DNA of 64,000 nt from a virus (IMGVR_UViG_3300032030_000005:1-64000), one strand, 5' to 3'; shown: positions 23,151 to 56,168, counted from the stretch's first letter. Numbers and translations: made by a program. Notes: a model not told the origin generated them from the sequence alone.

Positions 23151-25259
23151 ATGAAGAAACATCAGATTGAACAGGTTGTAAAAATGGCTGACAAGTTTAA
23201 AGAAGGTCATGGCTTTTTAGGCCCAACCTGTATGATACCGGGACTATCTTTAACAGATAGTAACCGAGCACAGATGGATGCTTCTCATCTCGATCAGAGA
23301 TTACAGGTTTTAGAACCACAAGCACCATTAGTATACACTGGCTATGAGAATGAATGGGGAAAATATTCGTCAGGATATTGTGAACTTAAGGGTACATGGA
23401 AGGTTATGGCTAAGATAATTAGAAATGATTATCTCTATGTATTAATTCTTAAGAAGTTAAAGCATTCTAAAGAAGAGCTTAATGACCTTAAGACTAAAGG
23501 AAAAAAGCCTGAACATGATATTGGTGAATACCATATAGTAGAAAGATGTGAATGTACACATCTTACTGAAAAGTATGGATATCAACATGATAATACAGTT
23601 ATTGATTCACTTAAAAAAGGTGATGTCCTTAAAGAAGATACTGTTCTCTATAAAGACAATAATAGAGATTCTAGAATGAATCTTACTCATGGAAGAAATC
23701 TTAATTTAGTGTATTTAACATATGCTGGATTAACTAATGAAGATGCGATTGTTATTAGTAAATCTGCAGCTAAGAAAATGGGCTACTATCAGGTTAAAGT
23801 AGTAGAAGTGTCTTTAAATACTAACGATATATTTGTAAATATGTATGGTAAAAAGACTAAAGATAAAAAGAAATATATTTATAAGGCCTTTCCTGATATT
23901 GGTGAAGAGTGTATAGATGGTCTGTTATGTGCTACTAGACGAATAGACTATAAGACTGCACCAATTATATTAGCAGATACCATTAATCTTATTAATGATG
24001 ATATTAAATATAGAGGACATGGTAAGGTTGTTAATATAGAAGTTATTAGTAATATAGAAAATCCAGAAGAAGTTCTTGATAATATGTACAATAAACAGAT
24101 TAAAAAATATTATGATGAACAACAGAACTTCTACAATAACTTTATTAAATATTCAGAACCTATTCTCACAGACACAACTAATAAGGTAAGTACAGACTAT
24201 GTTGATCTTTACAACTATTATTGCAAATTAACCGATCCAAATAATAAGTTTTTAGTAAGTGACAATTTATTTGATCATCTTAAGATTAAATTTACATTAC
24301 TGGAATCTGTGCCTTTAGATGTTGGTAATAAACTGGCAGGACGCTACGGTGACAAAGGAGTTATATCTTGTGTGCTTCCTGATGAAGAAATGCCTAAGAT
24401 TGAAGACTTTGCAGGCCTTGGTGGTTTAGATCCAGACAGTGTTGTTAATTTCAATATAGACATAATTTGTAATCCACTCGGTATCATTAATAGACTTAAT
24501 CCATCTCAGAATATTGAAATGGAATTAAACTATAACTCTAAATTTATAAGATATCAGATGGAACAGCATTGGGGAGAATGGACAGTTAAAGAACAGATCA
24601 AATACTTATTAGATTATATAAATGTAATTGATCCAAAGGAAAAAGAGAGAATTGAAAATATATTTAAAAAATTAAATGAAGAAGATAAAGAAGAACTCTT
24701 AGAAGGATTCATTAGAAATGGTATTCCGATCCACCAGCCACCTATTAATGGTGCTAAGAATATCATGGATCTGGCGAGAGTTTATGAATATACAGGCGTT
24801 GATAGAACTAAACTTTACAATATTGAAAATACAGTAATCTTTGGTGAAAAGTTTATGATGACTCTTAAGCATACACCACAGAGTAAATTTAGTGCTAGAA
24901 GTGTAGATCAGCTTAGTATAAAGAATATTCCAGTTAAATCTGAATTATATAAAGAATATAAAGCTGACTATTCTACAAACGCCATCAAGGTCGGTGAGAT
25001 GGAAAATATTAATCTCGGCCTAGCAAATCCAGCAAATAAGGGTGCTATGCAGATTAATAAAAACTTCTTAGATTCTCATGCTAATAATGAGGAAATGAGA
25101 ATGGATTTATTAGAGGCACAGTTATTTGATAATCCGTATGACTTCAAAGTAAAGACTTCTGAGACGATGTCTGAAAATAGTAAGATACTTAATACATTCT
25201 TACTATGTAGTCAGTTAGAGACTGAAAATGATGAAGATATGTTCACAGAAGACGAATAA
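23151..25259 (+). CDS. Multisubunit RNA polymerase beta subunit, C-terminal half
   Basis: DSNRAQM, GRNLNLVY..Y.GLTNEDAIVIS, GNKLAGRYGDKGVIS, DIICNPLGIINRLN, LKH, KVGEME motifs. Confidence 0.93.
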   Translation: MKKHQIEQVVKMADKFKEGHGFLGPTCMIPGLSLTDSNRAQMDASHLDQRLQVLEPQAPLVYTGYENEWGKYSSGYCELKGTWKVMAKIIRNDYLYVLILKKLKHSKEELNDLKTKGKKPEHDIGEYHIVERCECTHLTEKYGYQHDNTVIDSLKKGDVLKEDTVLYKDNNRDSRMNLTHGRNLNLVYLTYAGLTNEDAIVISKSAAKKMGYYQVKVVEVSLNTNDIFVNMYGKKTKDKKKYIYKAFPDIGEECIDGLLCATRRIDYKTAPIILADTINLINDDIKYRGHGKVVNIEVISNIENPEEVLDNMYNKQIKKYYDEQQNFYNNFIKYSEPILTDTTNKVSTDYVDLYNYYCKLTDPNNKFLVSDNLFDHLKIKFTLLESVPLDVGNKLAGRYGDKGVISCVLPDEEMPKIEDFAGLGGLDPDSVVNFNIDIICNPLGIINRLNPSQNIEMELNYNSKFIRYQMEQHWGEWTVKEQIKYLLDYINVIDPKEKERIENIFKKLNEEDKEELLEGFIRNGIPIHQPPINGAKNIMDLARVYEYTGVDRTKLYNIENTVIFGEKFMMTLKHTPQSKFSARSVDQLSIKNIPVKSELYKEYKADYSTNAIKVGEMENINLGLANPANKGAMQINKNFLDSHANNEEMRMDLLEAQLFDNPYDFKVKTSETMSENSKILNTFLLCSQLETENDEDMFTEDE

Positions 25260-43926: not shown

Positions 43927-44314
43927 AAAAAAAAGAGCAATACTCGGTTCGATCCGTAGATAGGCTATTGCTCTTTTTTTGCTTGGTCATTATTAGCTTT
44001 TTTAACTGTCCGGATCAGTAGCTAATAATGGAATATCGACTTTGATATTCACCGGGGGCGTTGCTTATTCCTCTTTTTTCAACTGCTCTGCCATGAATAA
44101 CCCTGTTATTCCCACTGTCAGCACATGTGCTGGAAGGCATTTTGCTTGTAGTTAAGAGCCTCGACGTCTTCAAAGGACCGCATAGAAGACCATATCATTT
44201 TAACATATGGTTGTTTCTTCTATTGTTGTAAAACTATGAATAAGGTTAATGTTTTTTGCGCAACAATCTATTCATAAAACCGAGAAAAACATCAATTTCC
44301 TCTTCCTTATTCAT
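43927..44314 (-). ncRNA. Candidate structured early ncRNA A (~390 nt)
   Basis: Early promoter at 44319-44330; at least seven hairpins; terminal hairpin plus U-tract; no substantial ORF. Confidence 0.6.
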
Positions 44315-44344
44315 AAATATAATATATAAATAAAAATATAATCT

Positions 44345-44759
44345 AAAAAAAAAAGAATAACCCAGACTTTTCAACTACGCCTTATGTATCACCGGTCGAT
44401 TACTGCGTGTATTATTCTTTTTTATTATGCGGACGTAAGATATGTATAGGTTCACAGCCGATTACTCGATCTATATAGTACGTATACTATATTATATAGA
44501 ACATGAACCTCACGGTAAATCAATATCTTTACGGAGTACAGAAATAGTACCCATCAGACTCATTTTTTTTTTCTTAAGAAACCTCAGCAAAGACCCTATT
44601 GCTAGATAATTACCTCTAGCTCAGTCTTCATAAGTTACATGTAACCTTAGCGTGTTTGGTTTCGTGTAAAATGGCGAAAAACACAATAATAGCTTCCATT
44701 TATGTTTTACTTATCCAAAAGTCTGGTAAACATCGGGAAGTTCTTCTTGCTATTATCAT
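44345..44759 (-). ncRNA. Candidate structured early ncRNA B (~415 nt)
   Basis: Early promoter at 44764-44776; nested stems; 10-bp long-range complement; U-tract end. Confidence 0.6.
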
Positions 44760-44774
44760 AAAAATAATATATAT

Positions 44775-45320
44775 TTATTTTTCCTTAAAGAAAATTTCTT
44801 TAATAAAATATTTACTAAAGTATTTATCAAAGTATTCTATTAATACTGGATCATTAGATTCTTTAATAATACTAGATAATTCTATACTCTTTAAAACCAT
44901 CTTAGCATCCTTATCTTTATCAAACCAGTATATATGAATCTTATCATTAAATACTTTACCATTATATTTACATGTAAATGGATATGTAAATATAATAGGA
45001 TCACCATCTATTGTCTTAGTCATTTCACCTAATTCAAGTACTAATTCTTTACATTTGATATTAATAACTGCTTTACGTTCTTCATCAAATTTAATTAAAT
45101 GTGATTCATAATCATCATCGATCTTCATCCAAGCTTCTGTATGTATAGGTGTTTCTTGATCTTTCTGAAATCCATTAGAAATACCTTCATATTTTTCCTG
45201 AAATACTGATGGTTTTCTAAAAGTATCTATTCTATAAGATACTTTACCATTATCATCTATGACTCTACATACATATATACCTTCTTCACTTGGAAGCTTT
45301 TCTTTTACATGTATAAACAT
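44775..45320 (-). CDS. Hypothetical protein with DUF551-like N-terminus
   Basis: FIHVKEKLPSEEGIYVCRV...EAWM pattern. Confidence 0.7.
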   Translation of the reverse strand: MFIHVKEKLPSEEGIYVCRVIDDNGKVSYRIDTFRKPSVFQEKYEGISNGFQKDQETPIHTEAWMKIDDDYESHLIKFDEERKAVINIKCKELVLELGEMTKTIDGDPIIFTYPFTCKYNGKVFNDKIHIYWFDKDKDAKMVLKSIELSSIIKESNDPVLIEYFDKYFSKYFIKEIFFKEK

Positions 45321-45322
45321 AA

Positions 45323-45691
45323 CTATTTCTCCTTATCTGTTACATTGAGATTAAAAGTTATTGTATTATCCAAGACATTATGGGCGAATTTAAAGACTTT
45401 GTAGTTCTTCAAGATCTCTTCACCTATTGCAGTAGCTAAGTCTTTTAACATATAACTCGGTATCTCATCTTTACTAATATCTTCTAAGTTATTGATTTTC
45501 TTGTATAATTCCGGTTCACAATCTTTAATAAAGCTGATATCATAGTTAATACTAACTGTATTTTCTTTAATATTTTCTTCTTCTTGCATTTCTGTATCCA
45601 TTGGTATATCTTCTTTAAAGAATTCCAGCATTTCATCAAACGCTTCAGCTTCATTATCTTTCTTTTTAATATCAAAAAGTCTTTCAAACAT
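45323..45691 (-). CDS. Hypothetical acidic protein
   Basis: 122-aa ORF with SD. Confidence 0.7.
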   Translation of the reverse strand: MFERLFDIKKKDNEAEAFDEMLEFFKEDIPMDTEMQEEENIKENTVSINYDISFIKDCEPELYKKINNLEDISKDEIPSYMLKDLATAIGEEILKNYKVFKFAHNVLDNTITFNLNVTDKEK

Positions 45692-45754
45692 ATTCTATCC
45701 CTTCCTATATATAAAATAGCTCTTAAGGAATATTACTTCCTTAAGAGCATGTTA

Positions 45755-47416
45755 TTAAATTATACCTTTGCAAATAAACTGATTAGATGTAACTAAAATA
45801 CCAATAATACTTATAACAGCCTTAAGTATTTCAGTTTCAGTTTTTAATGAATTAACTATTGAAGTTGATTCATCTGGTTCATAAGCTTTAGTTTTAAGAT
45901 TATATATACATTTTTCTTCTACACATTTTTTAATAATTTTATTTATCTCTTTATTTGGAATACCTGCATTTACAAGTACACATTTATAACATTCCATAAA
46001 TGCTTCAGCTATTAAATCTTCAAGAGTTGTTAATAGTTTATAATTCTTAACTACTCTTGCAAATGGAGTATGCTGAATACATTTAGGAATAGCTAAATTA
46101 CCGCCTGAAACATAACCTGTTTCTAATGCTGCCTTACAAGCAAAGATACTATCTTCAATAAGATATCTTCTATTATTCTTTTCTAATTCAGTATCTCCAC
46201 CTACATAATATTTTACAATAGATGAATTAAGATTACCTCTACGAGTCTCTAACTTAAAGATCTTATCATCGAAAGAGTCATCCTTTAATTCCTTAAGCTT
46301 CTCTATCTCTTCTGTAATAAAATCTACTCGTTCAGCAAGTTCTTTATCAGAACACTTTCTACCAATAATCTTAGTAGTCTTATTAGTAATTGAGATCTCA
46401 TCACAAGAGCCTAACATCTTATAGAAGTTTTTCTTAAAGTCTTCTTCTTTCTCAAAGTTCTTATCATAAATAGTGCTTTTTGTAAATAAAGCAATATCTT
46501 TAAATATTTCTTCCTGATTTTTATTCATAAAATTAAAATCAACTAAACAGATCTGAAGATCAGGATTCTGCTTCTTATTAATAATCCAACAAGAAACAAA
46601 TTCTACAGAAAAGCTCTTAGCGATAATAACTACTGGCTTTGTCTGCTGAGATACTAAATGACCTATTACATCTACAATATAATTAAGATCTGTTGAATCA
46701 AGTCTATCATTACACATAAATATAAAAGGATCTTTAACAGAAAATTCTGGCTTATTTTTATTAGTAGTAAATTCTTCTGCAATCATTCCTGATGCAAATT
46801 CAAGACCATTCAAATATTCATAAGAGTCTGTAGAATCTTTAGAATTCTCTAAATAAATAAAGCCTTCCTTACCGATCTTCTTATAAATATCATAAATATT
46901 CTTACCAACTTTTTCATCATTATTATTAGATACTTCCGCTATCTTCTGAATAATGTTAAAATTACTTTCATTAATAGGAGTTGCAAATTGCTTAATATTT
47001 TCGTTAATATAACCTTCTAATTCTTTTAAACCATCGAATATTTCTTTAGGTGCATATCCAGATAATTTACCATTAAGATTATTATTAATAGTATTAAACA
47101 AACTCTCTGCAATAACTACTGATGATGTACTACCATCACCAACAGTCTGTACTAAATTAAAAGAAATCTTTTTAATAATTTCATAAATAGTTCTTGCTAC
47201 CGGGCTTTCAAATCTTAAGCTAGATAAAATAGTATAACCATCCTTAGTAGCAATATGACCACTTATTTTATCTTCAATAATTGTTGAAGAACCATAATAA
47301 CCTAATGACTTTCTAAGGCTATCTGCTATAACCTTAAGAGTCATTGATGAAAGATCTTTATAATCTTTTTCTTTTACAATATTATCACTTTTACTATATA
47401 CTATATTATTTTCCAT
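45755..47416 (-). CDS. groEL: Phage chaperonin GroEL-like
   Basis: SLGYYG, ATKDGYTIL, VGDGSTSS, VGGDTELE, IEDSIFACKAA, GYVSGGN motifs; no GGM tail. Confidence 0.92.
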   Translation of the reverse strand: MENNIVYSKSDNIVKEKDYKDLSSMTLKVIADSLRKSLGYYGSSTIIEDKISGHIATKDGYTILSSLRFESPVARTIYEIIKKISFNLVQTVGDGSTSSVVIAESLFNTINNNLNGKLSGYAPKEIFDGLKELEGYINENIKQFATPINESNFNIIQKIAEVSNNNDEKVGKNIYDIYKKIGKEGFIYLENSKDSTDSYEYLNGLEFASGMIAEEFTTNKNKPEFSVKDPFIFMCNDRLDSTDLNYIVDVIGHLVSQQTKPVVIIAKSFSVEFVSCWIINKKQNPDLQICLVDFNFMNKNQEEIFKDIALFTKSTIYDKNFEKEEDFKKNFYKMLGSCDEISITNKTTKIIGRKCSDKELAERVDFITEEIEKLKELKDDSFDDKIFKLETRRGNLNSSIVKYYVGGDTELEKNNRRYLIEDSIFACKAALETGYVSGGNLAIPKCIQHTPFARVVKNYKLLTTLEDLIAEAFMECYKCVLVNAGIPNKEINKIIKKCVEEKCIYNLKTKAYEPDESTSIVNSLKTETEILKAVISIIGILVTSNQFICKGII

Positions 47417-47430
47417 AATATGTTTACTCC

Positions 47431-47799
47431 TTAATTTTTTAAAATGATAAATGTGTATTTATTATTATCTTTCGTAATATTAAAAATACCATTCAAATCA
47501 TATTTATCTATTAGTTCATCAATAGTATTATCTATATTAAATACTATCTTCTCAAAATTACAAATCATCGCATCTGTTGACTCACAATCATATCCTTCAA
47601 CTACACTATAATCTATATTTTCTGATCTAAATATATTTACTAATTTATTAAATTCATATCCATTCTTTTTATCTAAGGATTCTATAAAGTTATTTAAATC
47701 AGCACTATATTGATTTTCGATTTGTTCTTCTTCATTTATTACCTGATTTGATGGTTGTATAAGATCATTATAATAAAAATAAATCATAAAATCAACCAA
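47431..47799 (-). CDS. Hypothetical protein
   Basis: 122-aa ORF within the minus-strand operon. Confidence 0.65.
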   Translation of the reverse strand: MVDFMIYFYYNDLIQPSNQVINEEEQIENQYSADLNNFIESLDKKNGYEFNKLVNIFRSENIDYSVVEGYDCESTDAMICNFEKIVFNIDNTIDELIDKYDLNGIFNITKDNNKYTFIILKN

Positions 47800-47822
47800 C
47801 TTTCATAAATATATGCCCAACC

Positions 47823-48110
47823 TTATTTCTTATTAGATGCTAAGTTGTTAAGCTTAGCATTCTCGGCTTCTATACGTTTTCTGTCTAATTCCATTTTTTC
47901 TTCTTTAGCTTCTTTTAAAGATAGTAATACTGAATAATCCATTTGCATCATTTCAGTAATACTTATTTTACCTTCAAATAAGTCTAATAAATATAGTAAG
48001 AAATTAGCACTATTTTTATATTTCTCTTTTAATAATAAGTTGCCTTCTAAATCTTTGCTTACTGGTTGAGCATTAGACGAAAAAGCACATTTTCCATATC
48101 TACCGGCATT
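47823..48110 (-). CDS. Start-less -1-frame ORF, T4 gp51/gpGT-like; probable frameshift extension of 48059-49282
   Basis: Open frame of 95 codons (...NFLLYLLDLFEGKISITEMMQMDYSVLLSLKEAKEEK...) overlapping the upstream gene's 3' end. Confidence 0.6.
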   Translation of the reverse strand, partial: NAGRYGKCAFSSNAQPVSKDLEGNLLLKEKYKNSANFLLYLLDLFEGKISITEMMQMDYSVLLSLKEAKEEKMELDRKRIEAENAKLNNLASNKK

Positions 48111-49282
48111 TCACCAAGATCTTTTCCACATGAAGGACATTTAAAGTTAGGAATTCTATATTCTGTCTTGTATTTATTTGTCCATTCATCAATAGCTCTT
48201 GCTAACTGCTTTGAATCATTAATAGATAACTGCTTAAGAATCTTAATAATCTTTTCATTACCTGATACTGGATAATAAACAGGACTCTTCTTTTCAAGAG
48301 TTTCTGGTACATTAAGAAGATAAACATTCTTTATAAATAAAAGTGTAGCTAAATCACTAGCTAAGCTTTCAAGCTGATCTGTAGGTGTTGACTTTAAGAT
48401 ATCAAGCTGATTCTTAAGAGATGGTACTCGAATATCAATAATAGTCTTTGACTGCTCTAAGCATACTCTCTTATGTTCAGAAAGTAAAGAAGCCTTAATA
48501 ACAGCATCTGAATTATCAGCTGTCATAGCAATTTCATTTAATCTTTCAAAGATAGCTTCATCCTTACTAAATACAAGACTATCATTTGGAATATCATGTG
48601 AAAATTCATGTTCACAATGTACACACTTAAAATCAAACTTTGTACTACCTGGGAATGTCTGCATATGTAAACCATAGAATAAAGACTGAAGATCAAAGAA
48701 TGATGTACATTCACAGAATGTATCAAAATTAATTGGTCCAATACTTGTAGCCTGAATTCTATTATGAATAATCTGATAAATCTTCAATGTACTATGATAT
48801 TCATCCATTGTAGAATTTGTAATAGCATCAATATCATCAAACTTAAGAGCATTCATATAAGCTACATAACAACTCTGTGGAAGTGGTACTTGGAATGTAG
48901 GTGTTGAATTAAAAATTAAATCTAAATTACTATGCTTTTCAAGACTATTAAGTGAATCTGAAATTATAATATTATTTAAATCAATATTCATTGTAGGAAG
49001 AAGTTCATTAATCTGAACCTTCATATCATTCATTACATCATGCTTTGGACTAAGATTAAGAGGATCTGGATTAACATCTTCCTTTTGAGTGATAATATCC
49101 TTTGCTGAAAGACTCTTTGATGATTTTCTCTTAGTTGGTACATTATTACCTTTAGTCTTAACACTAAGATCTAATTCACCTTTAAGTTCTTTTTTAGCAT
49201 TTTCCATAGCTTCAAACATTTCTTGATTAACCTGAACTTCAGGTACTATATCATTTTGATCAAAATTAACTTTCTTGCCCAT
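48059..49282 (-). CDS. Baseplate hub assembly protein / tail chaperone (T4 gp26-like)
   Basis: FDLQSLFYGL..TFP, FKCVHCEH and FKCPSCG Zn-knuckles, IRVPSL. Confidence 0.7.
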   Translation of the reverse strand: MGKKVNFDQNDIVPEVQVNQEMFEAMENAKKELKGELDLSVKTKGNNVPTKRKSSKSLSAKDIITQKEDVNPDPLNLSPKHDVMNDMKVQINELLPTMNIDLNNIIISDSLNSLEKHSNLDLIFNSTPTFQVPLPQSCYVAYMNALKFDDIDAITNSTMDEYHSTLKIYQIIHNRIQATSIGPINFDTFCECTSFFDLQSLFYGLHMQTFPGSTKFDFKCVHCEHEFSHDIPNDSLVFSKDEAIFERLNEIAMTADNSDAVIKASLLSEHKRVCLEQSKTIIDIRVPSLKNQLDILKSTPTDQLESLASDLATLLFIKNVYLLNVPETLEKKSPVYYPVSGNEKIIKILKQLSINDSKQLARAIDEWTNKYKTEYRIPNFKCPSCGKDLGEMPVDMENVLFRLMLNQ

Positions 49283-49305
49283 ATTAGTTTATTCCTTTCT
49301 TATTA

Positions 49306-49950
49306 TTATAGATCCATCTTAGAAATTATTTTACTATTAGATGAATCTCCTGTATAAAATAGACTAAGTTTATATTCTTCTGAATTTCCATTTGGATTAG
49401 TATCATATACTGTAAAAAATATAGCAACTGTAATATATTTATTATCAGAACTTCTTAAAAATTCTATTTCTTGTTTAGTAGATATATTTGTATTAATTAA
49501 ATCTTTATTTAACCATTTAGTCATTTGATTATTAATATTAGTATTAAGTTCTGATTTTAAACCTTGTGTAGCTAATTCAAATAAATAATTTTCAATACCT
49601 ACACCAAAGTCTGGATTATTAGGATATGTACCCGGTTTAGTAACTAAAATATTTTGAATCATTCTAGCTACTGCTTCTTTACCTGATGTACCTTTTAATT
49701 TTTTAAATTCCGAAATATTTAGTGTTACATCTCTTATCTCTGTAGGAGTATTATTTTTCATTACAGCTTCTTTACCGGCTTTTACCATATCTTGAATCTT
49801 TTTATTAGCTTCATCTAAACTATTTTGCCGATATATTTCATAAACGTCACTTACATTTAAATGACCATTTGAATAAGCTCTATTTATAGCATCTATATAA
49901 GACTGATCGAATTCTCTAACTCCTATATTATTTGTGTTATCATTAGGCAT
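49306..49950 (-). CDS. Baseplate wedge protein (gp25/GpW-like)
   Basis: IQNILVTKPGTYPNNPDFGVGIENYLFE signature. Confidence 0.85.
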   Translation of the reverse strand: MPNDNTNNIGVREFDQSYIDAINRAYSNGHLNVSDVYEIYRQNSLDEANKKIQDMVKAGKEAVMKNNTPTEIRDVTLNISEFKKLKGTSGKEAVARMIQNILVTKPGTYPNNPDFGVGIENYLFELATQGLKSELNTNINNQMTKWLNKDLINTNISTKQEIEFLRSSDNKYITVAIFFTVYDTNPNGNSEEYKLSLFYTGDSSNSKIISKMDL

Positions 49951-50090
49951 TTTATATCACCTCATTTTTTAACTTATTAATATAGTTTATTTATACCTTT
50001 ATGTTAGTTATAGTATTAAAAATTAAAATTTTTAATTTTTTTAAAAAAGAAATTTATTAAATAATAATTATTTATTAAGGAGGGAAAAAT

Positions 50091-51452
50091 ATGAGTGAAA
50101 TAATAGAAAATATAATTGATGAAAATGAAAAAAATAAAAATACTAAAGAAAGAATTAGTGATATTAAAGCTTCCTTAGAATATACAGTTTCAGATGATGA
50201 AATTAATAATATCAATAATTTAAAAAATATTGTTGAAGATTCTACTATACCTAGAAAATATACATATGTGCCTAAATTAACAGCTATATTTTCAGATGGT
50301 ACTGTATATGATTTATTACAATATACTACAATAGTTCAAACTGAAATTAATTTAGATATATATGTGTTTCCATTAATATCTGTTAGATTAGATGTTCCAG
50401 TAGAATTAGTACCTAAGATTCAATTTGATGATGACTTAGTTATTAATTATGAATTGATGTACAATGCCAATACAGATTTAGATACAGCAACAATGTATAA
50501 TATATTATGGAATATTAATCTTAAAAAAGTTAAACAAGAAAGTTCACCTATTATGATGAATGAAATATTCTATAAGGAAGTATCTGAAGAAATTAGAAGA
50601 GTTCCTTTAGAATTAAAACTAATACCAGAAGATTGTTTAAATGCTAATAAGATATTATTCTCAGGTGTATATAGTAAATGTGATATGGTTCAAATGTTAA
50701 CTTTATTAACTGAAAAATTAAATTATAAAACTTATATATCAAGACCAGATAATATTAGAAAGTATAATCAAGTAATATTTCCACCTTGTAATATATTTTA
50801 TGGTATTGAATATTTGGATCAATATTATGGATTATATGATAGAGGATTAAAGATGTTTTATGGTTTTGGAAATAGTGTCATAATGTCAAAGAATCATTAT
50901 ATAGAAACTGGTATGAATAAAGTTAAAGTATCATTTGCTCAAAATAATAATGGTTATGATATTTATAATTATACTAATGGTGGTATAGAGCAATTAGGTA
51001 GTGACTATTATATATCAATAACTCCTAATAAAGTTAAGATTTTAGATAAAAGACATTATATGAAAGAGACTTTAGGTACTATAGTAACAACTTATTCAAG
51101 AGATGATCATGTATATTTTGAACAAGCAAGAGAATATGATTATACAGAAAAAGAAGATATTATAGAAAAAGTTAAATCATATGTAAACCAATATAATAAT
51201 ACAAATAAAGAAAAAGAATATTTATTAAGATCTGTATATTCAAGACAAATAGAATTAATGCTTGAAGGTGCTTTATTACCACCAGATGGATGGTTTAAAG
51301 TATTTGATATTAATTTTGATTCTAATAATTATAATTCTTTAAATGGTCTTTATTGTATGCATGGTTATTATTTTAGATTAGCTAAAATTAGTAATAAAAA
51401 TAGTACAAGAGGTTTTGATGTTACTTCTGCTATAGAATTAACTGAAATATAA
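50091..51452 (+). CDS. Putative baseplate hub / virion structural protein
   Basis: 453 aa; hub-like pattern (QVIFPP..IEYLDQYYGLY; NGLYCM); located among baseplate genes. Confidence 0.55.
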   Translation: MSEIIENIIDENEKNKNTKERISDIKASLEYTVSDDEINNINNLKNIVEDSTIPRKYTYVPKLTAIFSDGTVYDLLQYTTIVQTEINLDIYVFPLISVRLDVPVELVPKIQFDDDLVINYELMYNANTDLDTATMYNILWNINLKKVKQESSPIMMNEIFYKEVSEEIRRVPLELKLIPEDCLNANKILFSGVYSKCDMVQMLTLLTEKLNYKTYISRPDNIRKYNQVIFPPCNIFYGIEYLDQYYGLYDRGLKMFYGFGNSVIMSKNHYIETGMNKVKVSFAQNNNGYDIYNYTNGGIEQLGSDYYISITPNKVKILDKRHYMKETLGTIVTTYSRDDHVYFEQAREYDYTEKEDIIEKVKSYVNQYNNTNKEKEYLLRSVYSRQIELMLEGALLPPDGWFKVFDINFDSNNYNSLNGLYCMHGYYFRLAKISNKNSTRGFDVTSAIELTEI

Positions 51453-51496
51453 AAAAATTGAGTAAAAACCTATATAGGTTTTTACTCAAAATAATA

Positions 51497-52042
51497 TTAA
51501 TCTTTATACCAGTTGGCGAGTCTATGCTTATCTGTGCCAAAGTTATCTTTACCCTGATTGATAAAGACTTCTTCAACTTCTCCGGTCTTATAATTAAGCA
51601 TTTCACATTTCTGCTGATAGTTATATTCTACAATAGCATTTGTCTGATCTGCTGCAAAGTATACTTTTTCACCATTAGTTCTATCTACGATACCAACAAT
51701 ATTTTCACTAACTGCTTCAGCATTATTTAAATCATAACGTTCACAGTCATATACCTGAACTGTTGATGTATAAATATCAGATATACTACACCAATCCATT
51801 CTCCATTTTACTTCATCATAGATTCTAAGTAAATCATTCTTCTTATACTGAGGCTTAGTCGGATCTTTAATATATTCGATCAAATCATCTCTATCTAATA
51901 AATCATTACCTGATTCTACTAATGGCTTATGCTTCTGAACTAATAATAATTCATAAGGCTTATACTTATCAAAATAATTAAATACGTTCTTATCGATCTT
52001 AGGGCTATTAGTTATAATACTTATAATTTCAGCTGCTGTCAT
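51497..52042 (-). CDS. Hypothetical late protein (start MTAAEII)
   Basis: GAAAGGA SD and late promoter 52068-52079 place the start at 52042. Confidence 0.7.
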   Translation of the reverse strand: MTAAEIISIITNSPKIDKNVFNYFDKYKPYELLLVQKHKPLVESGNDLLDRDDLIEYIKDPTKPQYKKNDLLRIYDEVKWRMDWCSISDIYTSTVQVYDCERYDLNNAEAVSENIVGIVDRTNGEKVYFAADQTNAIVEYNYQQKCEMLNYKTGEVEEVFINQGKDNFGTDKHRLANWYKD

Positions 52043-52097
52043 AATATCATTCCTTTCTATAGAAATATAACCATTTGTTAAAAGGAGGCAAACTAAT

Positions 52098-52565
52098 ATG
52101 AATATAGAAATTTTAAAATTCAAAATAACTGATTATAAAGATAAAGTTATCCCAAAAAAATTATTTAGAAAAGAAAAAATAGTTAAAGAAGAAATATCAT
52201 ATGAAATTAAATTATCATATAATTTAGATGAAGATAGATTTTATTATGAGGATGAAAATAAATTAATCCCTACTAAAAAAGATTTATCAAGATCTATATT
52301 AATGTTATATGATATTTATAAGAGATATGAGAAGTTTGGTTATGCAGAAAATTTTATATTATCCAAAAATAATTTAGGAGTATTTCTTAAGAATTTCTTT
52401 ATATGTAATAATGATGAAAATGATAGTTATTTAAAAAGAATGATTTTTGGAACTCAGCCTATTAATATAATGCTTATTAATAGTGTTTTAGATGAATTAA
52501 ATATCAAAGATGTAGATTTTACTAATTACTATTATTATCAGTATCCTACTATAAAATTTAGATAA
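52098..52565 (+). CDS. Hypothetical protein
   Basis: AAGGAGG SD; 155 aa. Confidence 0.75.
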   Translation: MNIEILKFKITDYKDKVIPKKLFRKEKIVKEEISYEIKLSYNLDEDRFYYEDENKLIPTKKDLSRSILMLYDIYKRYEKFGYAENFILSKNNLGVFLKNFFICNNDENDSYLKRMIFGTQPINIMLINSVLDELNIKDVDFTNYYYYQYPTIKFR

Positions 52566-52720
52566 AAAAAAATGCTAGACGTAATGTTACATGTAACATT
52601 ACGTCTAGCTCCCGTTAATAGACTCGATATATGCTATATGCACTATTAACCATACTAAGCCTTTCAGTAGTAAACTACCCTCGGAGATTAATAGAACATT
52701 ACATACTCTATCTATTCACA
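52563..52720 (-). ncRNA. Candidate early sRNA C (~155 nt)
   Basis: Early promoter at 52724-52736; several hairpins; ends in a 36-bp perfect palindrome plus U9. Confidence 0.55.
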
Positions 52721-52804
52721 ATTATAATATATATTTAAAATAATGAGTTAATACGGTTTATAATAAAAGTTATATACATTCCTACTATAAAATTTAGACA
52801 AAAC

Positions 52805-53058
52805 AAAAAAAAAATAAGTACAACAATGTACTTATTTTTTTTTTCTCTATTTCGCAAGAAACGTTGCTTCACAGCAAGGCTAGACAAGCAAGCATAGAGA
52901 GGCACTCTTGTTCTTTTTTCAATGGTCTACAAGGAAAAGACCCTGACATATTATGAACAACTGAATAAAATATTATTTATAAGTAAGTGTATACTATACA
53001 CTTACTTTCTGGAGGACTTTTGAAGAGAATATAAGGGGGATATATTCTCTTCATCACA
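52805..53058 (-). ncRNA. Candidate early sRNA D (~250 nt)
   Basis: Early promoter at 53062-53074; 5' hairpin with UCCCCCU loop; terminator 52805-52843. Confidence 0.6.
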
Positions 53059-53136
53059 ATTATAATATATATTTGAAAATTACATTTAAAACAGAAATTA
53101 TATCCCTAAAGGTTATTAACCTTTAGGGATATAATT

Positions 53137-54291
53137 TTAAATAAATAAATCGTCACCTGGATTGCTTGTTGCATCATATTTAGGAACGACATCTTGTCTA
53201 TTATCAGGATTATAATTACTTTCAAGACTGTTTGAAGTACTCATATCTTCCTGTTTTAATGTAGTAATTGTTTGATGTTCTGTCTGTCTTACGTCATCAT
53301 CAAGAGCTTTTGCAAGTTTCTTAACTGTATCCGCAGCCTTAAGCTTTCTTTTAGCAACTGCCTGATCATGTTTACTATTAGAAAGAGCTACAGCATCTGC
53401 TTCCATAGTCATAGAAAGATATTTTAATGATTCTGCAATATCATTCTTCTTGAAGTAGAACCAGCAAATAAATACTCTAATTAAATAGATAGCTGCAACA
53501 ATGGCTGTACCAACTAATGCAATACCAGCTGTAGCAGCAAGAACCGGATGAGCACCAGCACCAGCTGTAACAATTTGACCTAAAGTACCAACAATTGAAG
53601 CTCCTTCTGGAACTGCTTCATTATAAACCATTTCATATTCTTCAACTTTTCTTTCAAAAGTTTCATTAAGAGTAAGTTTATTATTTCTACAAAGATCGTT
53701 AAACTTTTCAAGATTTTTAAATAAAATATTTTTCTTTAATGAGTTTGTCGGTGGATCTCTATAAATTAAAAGATTATCTTCAGTAATAGAAATACAATTA
53801 ATAAATACAATTGATGTTGCATCCATAACAGCTAATGATACTGTCTGATATAAAAGAATATTAACACTATCGTTTGTATCATAAGCTTTTTCAAAATACT
53901 TAATATTCTTTTCAAGATTATTCATAGCAGTTTCAACAATATGAAATGCTGTTACAGCTTCTACTGTATTTTTACCCTTAGCTTTTTCAAGCATAGGCTT
54001 TAAAACTGATAAACACTTCTTAGTAATCTTATAAGCCTTAGACTTAGTAATATTACCTCTTGTTTGTGGTAAATCTAAGAAAGCACCTTTCTTATTTAAT
54101 GCTTGAAGACGCTTTTCTGATTTCTTCATAGCTATAGAACCAACTTTATCAGCTAATCCTATTTTTTGTGCTTCAGTTAAACTATTTAAAAATTTATCTG
54201 ATACTACAAAAGAATTTGTATCTAAATAATTTTCTTTTAATACAGCTTCTAATGTAAATCTATCAGGAGTCATATTCATTATATAAGCCAT
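53137..54291 (-). CDS. Virion structural or internal protein with TM-like segment
   Basis: 384 aa; late operon; L-x-E motifs; Ala/Gly hydrophobic helix. Confidence 0.6.
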   Translation of the reverse strand: MAYIMNMTPDRFTLEAVLKENYLDTNSFVVSDKFLNSLTEAQKIGLADKVGSIAMKKSEKRLQALNKKGAFLDLPQTRGNITKSKAYKITKKCLSVLKPMLEKAKGKNTVEAVTAFHIVETAMNNLEKNIKYFEKAYDTNDSVNILLYQTVSLAVMDATSIVFINCISITEDNLLIYRDPPTNSLKKNILFKNLEKFNDLCRNNKLTLNETFERKVEEYEMVYNEAVPEGASIVGTLGQIVTAGAGAHPVLAATAGIALVGTAIVAAIYLIRVFICWFYFKKNDIAESLKYLSMTMEADAVALSNSKHDQAVAKRKLKAADTVKKLAKALDDDVRQTEHQTITTLKQEDMSTSNSLESNYNPDNRQDVVPKYDATSNPGDDLFI

Positions 54292-54309
54292 TTTTTACAC
54301 CCCTCTCTA

Positions 54310-55683
54310 TTATCTACCAAATAATGACTTAAGATCATCTAAGTTAAGAGGCTTCGGCTTCTTCTGTCTCTTAAATGCTTCAAGCTTTTTAACGATATAA
54401 TGACCAGATGGCTCATCATAAATATATACTGTATTTGTAGATTCATCAATATAACCAAAATTTAATAAATATAATTGATCTAATAAATTCTGAGCAAATT
54501 TAGGTAATGTTAAATCAACCTTATATGTATTAGCTATATAATCTACTTCATCTTTAGAAACCATTAATGTAGCAACCTTAATAGGAGCATCTAAAGAATG
54601 ATTTGATAATCTGGTTGCTTTATTCATAGCTCTAAGCTTCTTTAATTTAAACCACCAATAGTTAGATGATTTAGCGGCCTGAATACCAGTATTCTTCATG
54701 TTTGTAAAGTCAAATAAGAATTCAAATAAACCTTTAGCAAAATTATATTCACCAGTAGTCCATTTAATAAATCTGAAGAAACCAGTATTCTTATATGAGT
54801 TACCAATATTAAAGATGATATCTTCTGATTTAATAGGATGAGCTACACATTTAACACCAAAGATAACTTCTTTTTCATCAAGAGATGATCTAGACATGCC
54901 ATATGATGGATTCTTTTCATTTCTAGAACCAATATTAAAAATAGATTTACCATCAGTTCCTGGAATTGGAATACCTATACCTGCAGAAACTGAATTCTGC
55001 ACAGAGTTGGCTACAGAAATTCTAACTTTTAAAAACGTTGGCTGTAAATCATTAACCTTTTTAAACATATCTGGATCAAATACATTCTTATCAGAGAATG
55101 TAGCTGTTGATGAGCTAGAAGTTGTTTGCTTAACAGAATAACTAAAAGGTCCAATATCATTAGTTGATTCCCATGAATTATCTGTTTTATTAACAATTGT
55201 TCCGTTTGGAGTATCATCTTTGGCTTCTTTTAAGTATTTAGGTAAAGTAGTTTCATTTAAAGACCATTTACAGAATTTATCTTCAACTGGAATTAATGAA
55301 GATTGAAGAGCAGAATTAATAGATTCTTCAAATAATGCTGGTGTTCTCATAATTTGAGAATTTGGTCCACCTTCAATATTAGTATGTACAAGTTTTAATG
55401 CTGATAAAAGATCGCCAGTACCATTAGTTAATTTACCAAAATCATTTTGAAGTAAAAGTCTAAGCATAATAGTATTTTCAACTTCAAAACCATCAGCTAA
55501 TGCAGTTGCTGCATCAACCGAAATATTTTGACTTATTAATAATGGAAATTGTAATATATAATCTTTAGCTAACATTTTAAGAGATTGACCATTTGGCATT
55601 GTTTGTTTATAATCTCTAGATGTTGTTGCTCTCATTGTCATATAACGATCTAAGATATTATTAAAAGCTCCCATAAAATTCAT
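54310..55683 (-). CDS. Virion structural protein (likely start at the second Met, 55674)
   Basis: 457 aa; late promoter 55703-55714; LQFPLLIS, LQPTFLKV and FGVKCVAHPI motifs. Confidence 0.6.
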   Translation of the reverse strand: MNFMGAFNNILDRYMTMRATTSRDYKQTMPNGQSLKMLAKDYILQFPLLISQNISVDAATALADGFEVENTIMLRLLLQNDFGKLTNGTGDLLSALKLVHTNIEGGPNSQIMRTPALFEESINSALQSSLIPVEDKFCKWSLNETTLPKYLKEAKDDTPNGTIVNKTDNSWESTNDIGPFSYSVKQTTSSSSTATFSDKNVFDPDMFKKVNDLQPTFLKVRISVANSVQNSVSAGIGIPIPGTDGKSIFNIGSRNEKNPSYGMSRSSLDEKEVIFGVKCVAHPIKSEDIIFNIGNSYKNTGFFRFIKWTTGEYNFAKGLFEFLFDFTNMKNTGIQAAKSSNYWWFKLKKLRAMNKATRLSNHSLDAPIKVATLMVSKDEVDYIANTYKVDLTLPKFAQNLLDQLYLLNFGYIDESTNTVYIYDEPSGHYIVKKLEAFKRQKKPKPLNLDDLKSLFGR

Positions 55684-55732
55684 TCCTTTCTATTAAAAAA
55701 TATAAATGGTTGTTAATAGTGTATTATTAATG

Positions 55733-56088
55733 AAAAAAAAAATAATTAACCCTATAAAGGGAGGCTAAGTAGTATTGCATACTTAGCCTAAACAAAAATT
55801 AATATCAGAGGCCCACAACAATACTTAAATTGTTTACAGTTTATTTTTAATTGAAAAAGTTTTAATTAAATACCTAATAAAATTCCAATGATGAGCTTAT
55901 AAATTAAACTAGCCATGTTATAAAACCTCTCAATTAAATAAATTGAGATTAATATTAGTGAGAGAGCATTGGTTTACTTCTGTAATATATTGTATCTGTA
56001 GGAACAAACTATCTTAAAAGATATCAAACATATCTCCTACTGGGCTTGACGACTAGTGAAGCATGGTTCATCACCCACTAATCTCTAC
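55733..56088 (-). ncRNA. Candidate structured early ncRNA E (~355 nt)
   Basis: Early promoter at 56093-56105; stems attagtg/cactaat, gtagga/tcctac, aggctaagta/tacttagcct; U10 end. Confidence 0.5.
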
Positions 56089-56168
56089 TATAATAATATA
56101 TATTTAAAGATTTTTATGTAAAACAACAACCTAATATTAAATTTATATATAGAAGAAGGTGATTTAAT

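Follow-up and report, generated by a model that had tools for sequence, protein, structure and literature searches.

The 64,000-nt window analyzed here is the first 64 kb of the IMG/VR virus record IMGVR_UViG_3300032030_000005 (305,865 bp in total, G+C 27%), and contains five minus-strand stretches, units A–E, each of which runs from a promoter to a terminator without a normal gene between them. The units lie at 43927..44312 (A, ~386 nt), 44345..44757 (B, ~413 nt), 52564..52717 (C, ~154 nt), 52805..53055 (D, ~251 nt), and 55733..56086 (E, ~354 nt), and the genes around them are mostly late or structural, including those for a gp25-like baseplate protein, a tail-tube protein, and two proteins matching “virion structural protein” PHROGs. 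Judging from its sequence, the virus is a rumen jumbo phage and kin of Bacillus phage AR9. In a BLASTN search against GenBank phages, its GroEL gene matched AR9/PBS1-like Bacillus phages and S6-like Staphylococcus jumbo phages. The same DNA is found again in metagenomes and metatranscriptomes from the gut (rumen-type) of sheep and cattle, where 10 RNA runs from five studies contain the phage. Two RNA polymerase beta-like proteins (23673-24911 and 89539-90204, with Rpb2_6 matches above the cut-off) and a beta-prime-like protein containing an NADYDGD motif (open reading frame (ORF) 135933-137357) indicate that the phage encodes two multisubunit RNA polymerases.

The passages of the AR9 study that describe its promoters give an experimentally defined early consensus, AAATATATATTAT-(6N)-G+1, which is assigned to the injected virion RNA polymerase (PMC5312081). 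The early motif in the window agrees with this consensus letter for letter. Allowing up to one mismatch, AAATATATATTAT occurs 14 times in the window, compared with 5.1 ± 2.1 times in shuffled sequences. Promoters of this type stand at the right edge of all five units and point along the minus strand. Those of B (44764..44776, overlapping the stop codon of a 181-aa gene), C (52724..52736, with an additional upstream AACCGTATTAA element), D (53062..53074), and E (56093..56105) match the consensus perfectly, and the promoter and start of D are the same as those of C over 21 nt. The promoter of A (44319..44331, ATTTATATATTAT) has two mismatches in the window, and its counterpart in the related contig L016 is a perfect AAATATATATTAT. 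Following the AR9 rule, the predicted +1 positions are 44312, 44757, 52717, and 53055 for A–D (all G) and 56086 for E (A). The usual early promoter of this genome is followed 25–90 nt past +1 by a ribosome-binding site and an ORF, a pattern that the five units do not show. The ATG or GTG at the start of several units is part of the promoter/start consensus (aattRTG), and is found again at many promoters.

At the left edge, each unit ends in a hairpin followed by a run of 8–10 U residues (43927-43934, 44345-44354, 52564-52572, 52805-52814, and 55733-55742 for A–E). The 3′ end of A is a hairpin with U8, that of B a long-loop hairpin with U10, and that of E two hairpins with U10; a simple terminator scan missed the terminators of A and B because of their long loops. 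The G+C contents of the units (A 0.373, B 0.341, C 0.329, D 0.315, E 0.282) exceed that of 120 other spacers (mean 0.21, standard deviation 0.065, 95th percentile 0.32), only marginally so for E, and A–D also lie above the gene mean. Folding z-scores, which include the contribution of the terminators, were −4.0 for the multi-hairpin A, −6.3 for C, −9.6 for D, −4.2 for E, and only −0.7 for B.

No minus-strand ORF of at least 30 aa lies wholly within any unit, save TTG or GTG frames lacking a ribosome-binding site, and no such site precedes any frame in A, B, C, or D. Small genes of 29–42 aa in the same genome (membrane peptides, 143.1-143.7 kb) use strong AAGGAGGTGAT-type ribosome-binding sites. 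A scan of the whole window with Rfam covariance models, including GOLLD, ROOL, OLE, 6S, RNase P, transfer-messenger RNA (tmRNA), signal recognition particle RNA, introns, self-cleaving ribozymes, and RsaE, gave 0 matches at gathering score, and matches at E values up to 10 were terminator look-alikes only. ARAGORN detected no tRNA or tmRNA in the units. Repeat-based RNA decoys are known as type III antitoxin mimics and CRISPR-repeat RNA anti-CRISPRs; no tandem repeats were found within the units, and repeat arrays are confined to AT-rich promoter spacers. The bodies of A–E show no paralogy with each other, and their common parts are the promoters, the terminators, and one weak likeness between A and D (35 nt, 27/35 identical) that is absent from the L016 copy. 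A preliminary description of this locus had reported early motifs and hairpin/U-tracts at opposite edges, an identical 21-nt promoter/start in C and D, G+C contents above those of other spacers, and no resemblance to known RNA families, all of which are borne out here. It had also called the stretches ORF-free, which holds for E only above a length cut-off, as E contains a 16-codon ORF behind a GAGAGG sequence.

Evidence for transcription came from assembled metatranscriptome contigs, in which strand, ends, and levels are not strictly measurable and missing cover, for example over most of C, is no proof of silence. In a sheep metatranscriptome containing the identical strain, a 359-nt contig lies wholly on A (43943-44301, depth 79.6) and a 401-nt contig lies on B (44363-44740, depth 69.8). 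The two contigs end 11–19 nt from the predicted transcript ends, and are joined neither to each other nor to the flanks. Contigs listed for the neighborhood of A and B in the same run have depths of 4–12, placing A and B roughly 6–20 times higher. Contigs of B variants from two bovine studies have depths of 13–35 and 160–330, compared with 0–15 alongside, and at least four B alleles are visible among the RNA contigs. The separate RNA contigs support discrete transcripts running from promoter to terminator for both A and B. In three studies, RNA contigs have an end at 53144-53157, immediately upstream of a hairpin that follows a 384-aa gene; this pattern fits RNA better than carried-over DNA.

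A diverged copy of the A/B locus was found on L016, a 2.3-kb metagenome contig, and L017, a 1.1-kb Logan contig, which carry the same genes at 94–95% nucleotide identity. B is 86% identical to L016/L017, and A is 76% identical to L016. The copies differ in A and B by insertions and deletions (indels) of 1, 2, 4, 13, 14, and ~50 nt, many of them not multiples of three, and these frame-breaking changes indicate that neither A nor B can be coding. The indels and variants, in L016 and in the RNA runs, fall in the loops and A-rich linkers of A and B. One variant contig, for instance, skips or replaces a 10-nt loop of B (44606-44615), and L016 has ~50 extra nt in this loop. Public gene calls over A and B (L016 1556-1999 and L017 705-1121) hold in-frame stops under table 11, including a 147-aa “gene” over A in L016 that we rejected as spurious; such artefacts would hide the two RNAs in annotation.

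The helices of A and B are retained through paired changes. Between the window and L016, three pairs of a 7-bp hairpin in A have changed on both strands of the stem, as have two pairs of the helix that follows. Helices in B change from GUUAC/GUAAC to GUUGC/GCAAC and from GGUUCA/UGAACC to GGUUAG/CUAACC, and the B terminator stem exchanges A-U for G-C. The RNAalifold consensus fold of A contains 13 compensatory pairs with a structure conservation index (SCI) of 0.68, compared with a mean of 4.2 pairs (maximum 9) and a maximum SCI of 0.53 in 40 column shuffles. For B, the corresponding values are 7 pairs and an SCI of 0.65, compared with a mean of 1.0 (maximum 4) and a maximum SCI of 0.33. When the window sequence alone was folded, A had 9 compensatory pairs, above all 60 shuffles. 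Both RNAs thus keep their structure without coding for protein, as judged by thin statistics from one diverged copy. The strand of A and B was assigned from promoter and terminator orientation alone, because folds of the opposite strand score about equally. In the 5′ domain of B, the segment CCAGACUUUU (44717-44726) has two alternative partners, AAAAGUCUGG next to the terminator (44362-44371) and GAGUCUG in the middle of B (44554-44560); all three segments are invariant in L016.

C is composed of a 100-nt 5′ hairpin domain and a terminator that is a 36-nt perfect palindrome, and has no ORF longer than 12 aa. D is a chain of perfect hairpins with ORFs of 25–26 aa only, none with a ribosome-binding site. 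Two C-rich motifs are exposed in its predicted fold, a UCCCCCU loop (53034-53040) and a CCUCC linker (53011-53015), with predicted unpaired probabilities of 1.0 and 0.58, respectively. Small RNAs (sRNAs) of Firmicutes with C-rich motifs, of the RsaE type, pair with ribosome-binding sites. Likewise, the UCCCCCU loop and single-stranded CCUCC of D could pair with Shine-Dalgarno sequences, a motif-level likeness, with no match to the Rfam RsaE model, that suggests a possible action on ribosome-binding sites.

In a single run, the RNA depth bin holding most of E reached 26, about twofold above its neighbors (12 and 4). E contains a 16-codon hydrophobic ORF (55866..55916, minus strand, MASLIYKLIIGILLGI) with GAGAGG 9 nt before its ATG, and this GAGAGG is predicted to pair with a segment just past the ORF stop. 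Between the E terminator and the gene for a 457-aa virion protein lies a late-promoter-like motif, AACA-6N-TA (55703..55714, minus strand), which we compared with the late consensus in the promoter passages of the AR9 study (PMC5312081). The same layout of a terminator followed by AACA-6N-TA is found after a unit at genome 150335 and in the related phage G001. The unit at 150335, like E, stops just before this motif and a late gene. It is one of three more early-promoter-to-terminator units of 190–260 nt without a normal gene, located at genome positions 140930-141138 (+), 145944-146180 (+), and 150316-150060 (−). In the one at 145944, a hydrophobic ORF of 31 aa follows a strong ribosome-binding site and extends through the terminator.

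The slots occupied by the five units are variable among relatives. A and B are absent in G001, G003/L021, L024, and L026, whose flanking proteins are 70–73% identical to those of the window, and the two flanking genes lie 100–120 bp apart there with a plain terminator between them. Two relatives have a gap of 40 bp in place of C and D, and G001 has one early unit with a 68-aa ORF there. In the E slot, G001 has an early unit with a 62-aa ORF and an AGGAGG occluded by a hairpin. Promoters and flanks of the G001 and window slots are homologous, whereas the bodies of the units are unrelated. Another variable slot nearby carries a gene of the HicA toxin family in relatives. ORF-free early units could not be upheld as a family-wide trait, since the candidates in G003 proved either to contain small ORFs or to be motif matches inside genes.

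Searches for further homologues of the units were largely negative. BLASTN of A and B against GenBank phages gave GroEL matches only, and a BLAST search with the units against six related IMG/VR records matched the promoter only. Exact and degenerate patterns of A and B found no homologue in the viral contig and genome contig collections, and in the metagenome contig collection nothing but a chance match, L020 (53% G+C). The complete 265-kb genome G003 and other related phage DNA, 550 kb in all, gave no match to nhmmer profiles of A and B or to single sequences of C, D, E, and the three further units. A protein search for RNA contigs using a spurious antisense ORF of B returned nothing, and close variants of the proteins flanking C, D, and E were found only in the same genome, on a contig running the wrong way, or on an unrelated bacterial contig. 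Within the collections searched, A and B appear to occur only in this lineage, and the units are probably lineage-specific cargo cassettes rather than a conserved system.

Together, these results confirm the presence of five promoter-to-terminator units without normal genes, make A and B credible as genuine, abundant, folded non-coding RNA (ncRNA) genes, and leave C, D, and E as predicted RNA-gene candidates. The preliminary description had gone further, proposing five structured early ncRNAs that form a possible host-takeover or anti-defence system. The ncRNA part of this proposal holds for A and B, for which there are RNA contigs and compensatory pairs in one diverged copy, and is not established for C, D, and E, which have no homologue in which covariation could appear. 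The idea of one system is not supported: the bodies have nothing in common beyond promoters, terminators, and the weak A/D likeness. Host takeover or anti-defence is no more than a possible role.

As a whole, we consider it probable, though well short of certain, that each of the five stretches forms an early transcription unit of its own, bounded by an intrinsic terminator and by an AR9-type promoter at which the injected virion RNA polymerase starts, and that these units have been inserted as accessory cargo among conserved, mostly late structural genes. A and B would yield abundant, discrete, stably folded ncRNAs of ~390 and ~410 nt, with fast-evolving sequences and retained helices. C and D would probably be short early sRNAs, the C-rich, anti-Shine-Dalgarno-like motifs of D serving to pair with ribosome-binding sites, and E could be another sRNA or else a tightly folded mRNA that encodes a hydrophobic peptide of 16 aa. 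The virion polymerase would make these RNAs at once after injection. During the first minutes of infection they may affect the host in trans, either through antisense regulation or by sequestering an RNA-binding factor as decoys or sponges. Such RNAs would be exchangeable, strain-specific cargo, like the small early proteins that relatives hold in the same slots. Fast sequence change, retained structure, early expression, and exchangeable slots fit a host-directed or counter-defence cargo. An extension of this explanation, possible but doubtful at present, is that A and B serve the phage in counter-defence or takeover, as RNA cargo synthesized in bulk by the injected virion polymerase within the first minutes to bind and neutralize a host RNA-binding sensor, nuclease, or regulator, shaped by an arms race, and interchangeable with protein cargo such as the nearby HicA-like genes.

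Several observations weigh against this explanation. B folds no better than shuffled sequences, and its compensatory count on the window-only fold is marginal, being equalled by 3 of 60 shuffles. The covariation rests on a single diverged copy, and structure does not discriminate between the strands. Contig depth is a crude measure, taken from RNA runs alone. The promoter of A departs from the consensus at two positions, and among the AR9 promoters described, one predicted early promoter with a single deviation was found to be inactive (PMC5312081). RNA contig cover of C is next to nil and of low depth, that of D is inseparable from the neighboring gene, and for C, D, and E the lack of homologues means that no constraint is demonstrable. 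Action in trans on the host is purely inferred.

Some of the same features would be explained if the units were short early mRNAs encoding micro-peptides, with folds that regulate translation as in type I toxin mRNAs. Candidate products are the 16-aa hydrophobic peptide of E, the 25–26-aa frames of D, and a 22-aa frame beginning at the +1 of A. The paired GAGAGG ahead of the E frame favors this explanation, as do the syntenic G001 unit with its occluded AGGAGG and 62-aa ORF, the true 29–42-aa membrane-protein genes elsewhere in the phage, and a 16-aa ORF with a strong ribosome-binding site in G003. However, true small genes here use AAGGAGGTGAT-type sites, which precede no frame in A–D, and the ATG or GTG at +1 belongs to a start consensus that recurs at many promoters. 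The copies of A and B differ by frame-breaking indels yet keep their helices, and no antisense partner was found by inspection, the only means by which one was sought. To our knowledge, 16 aa is also below the length of known type I toxins. We regard translation of the units as unlikely. The empty or protein-filled slots of relatives could alternatively mean that cargo has decayed in the units, C, D, and E at a minimum, in which a promoter, leader, and terminator are left after loss of a small early gene and are transcribed without function. The 550 kb of DNA from related phages contain no homologue of the C, D, or E body, which points the same way, as does the near absence of RNA cover over C, and the overall divergence of A and B about equals or exceeds that of the flanking genes. 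Against decay, the bodies retain no residual similarity to the G001 small proteins, their G+C exceeds that of spacers (and in A–D that of genes), C and D have very low folding z-scores and long perfect hairpins, and A and B are abundant with structures retained through compensatory changes, which together make this origin improbable.

A further alternative is that the units act in cis, as insulating promoter-terminator modules, as attenuator-like leaders (E before the 457-aa gene), or as replication primers or R-loops. The units do sit among late structural genes, an AACA-6N-TA late-promoter-like motif and a late gene of the same strand come directly after both E and the unit at 150335, and in phiKZ-like phages sRNAs derived from a 5′ untranslated region (5′UTR) arise by premature termination upstream of a tail gene (PMC11512511). 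Yet A+B and C+D precede another terminator-bounded unit and not a gene that could be regulated. Conserved folds of 400 nt are not needed for insulation, because relatives manage with a simple terminator, and absence from close relatives argues against an essential replication origin. We consider a cis function very unlikely, and retain early cargo units, with A and B as abundant ncRNAs, as the preferred reading.

The closest published counterparts of these units are the orphan ncRNAs of jumbo phage PA5oct and the sRNAs of 201phi2-1. The PA5oct ncRNAs (236–619 nt, including ncRNA001 of 236 nt and ncRNA002 of 451 nt; PMC7318152) are, like A and B, ORF-free, highly transcribed, and without an assigned function, and they have similarity only to a near-identical isolate, a distribution comparably narrow to that of the units here. 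PA5oct relies on host RNA polymerase and no promoter is known for its ncRNAs, whereas the units here have an AR9-type early promoter and clear terminators; comparative structure evidence is available here, and there is no sequence relation between the two sets. The phiKZ-like phage 201phi2-1 has 11 sRNAs of <250 nt (PMC11512511), which resemble the present case in that short units run from a promoter to a terminator and the jumbo phage that carries them has two multisubunit RNA polymerases. Among them, one lies upstream of a conserved tail gene, comparable to the position of E and the unit at 150335 upstream of late genes. Premature termination within a 5′UTR gives rise to most of the 201phi2-1 sRNAs, one of which is shared between genera; in contrast, A–E are stand-alone and lineage-specific, and A and B are much longer. 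In early phiKZ infection, differential RNA sequencing predicted a single sRNA, for which confirmation failed (PMC8244752).

AR9 itself has the identical early consensus AAATATATATTAT-6N-G+1, two RNA polymerases, and GroEL. The mapped starts are described there as lying upstream of annotated genes, and its promoter passages report no ORF-free early unit (PMC5312081). Among large structured RNAs, GOLLD, ROOL, and OLE are similar to A and B in being G+C-enriched, structured, and phage-associated, with their own promoter and terminator and no assigned function. A and B are smaller (~400 vs. 450–800 nt), single-copy, limited to one lineage, and without an Rfam match.

Phage ncRNAs are known, very few of them with a function, and the catalogue for jumbo phages that encode polymerases of their own holds only a handful. 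For an uncultured phage, A and B have unusually good indirect support, comprising an exact match to a published promoter type, separate RNA contigs of high depth from three independent rumen studies, and retained helices in a copy that diverges fast. Comparison with relatives indicates that early-promoter cassettes in this phage group are exchangeable cargo able to carry either a small protein or an RNA, making A and B natural candidates for host-directed or anti-defence roles. They offer a defined pair of molecules for testing, of a value limited by their narrow distribution.

The AACCGTATTAA element upstream of C marks a subclass of early promoters, in which it stands roughly 12 nt upstream of the AT-rich consensus and the start is aattgtG. 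Such promoters are present in the window at 52737-52760 and in the genome at, for example, 68410, 68850, 115749, 143129, 150335, 286229, 287455, and 298075, and occur also in G001 and G003. They drive mainly short cargo, either genes of 37–154 aa or ORF-free units, which suggests cassettes that move along with their own promoter. The promoter at 143129 belongs to an early operon (143129-143720) in which four tiny genes encode membrane peptides (~20–42 aa) and have strong AAGGAGGTGAT ribosome-binding sites; a 60-aa ORF cut-off overlooks these genes.

Close to A and B, a very acidic protein of 122 aa is encoded at 45323-45691 on the minus strand, between GroEL and the 181-aa gene. It has no Pfam or PHROG match and no homologue in the related phages, which have HicA-toxin-family and other genes in this slot, and it accompanies A and B in L016. 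A 12-nt palindrome, GTTACATGTAAC, is common to B (44634-44645) and the C terminator (52586-52597); its counterpart in the L016 copy of B is GTTGCATGCAAC, in which the hairpin is kept and the sequence changed. Further G+C-rich, ORF-free gaps lie at genome positions 83478-83838, 163282-163616, and 235544-235931. Large gene “gaps” at 193209-196230 are explained by a cluster of eight tRNA genes (Lys, Tyr, Asp, Met, Glu, Asn, Leu, and Gln).

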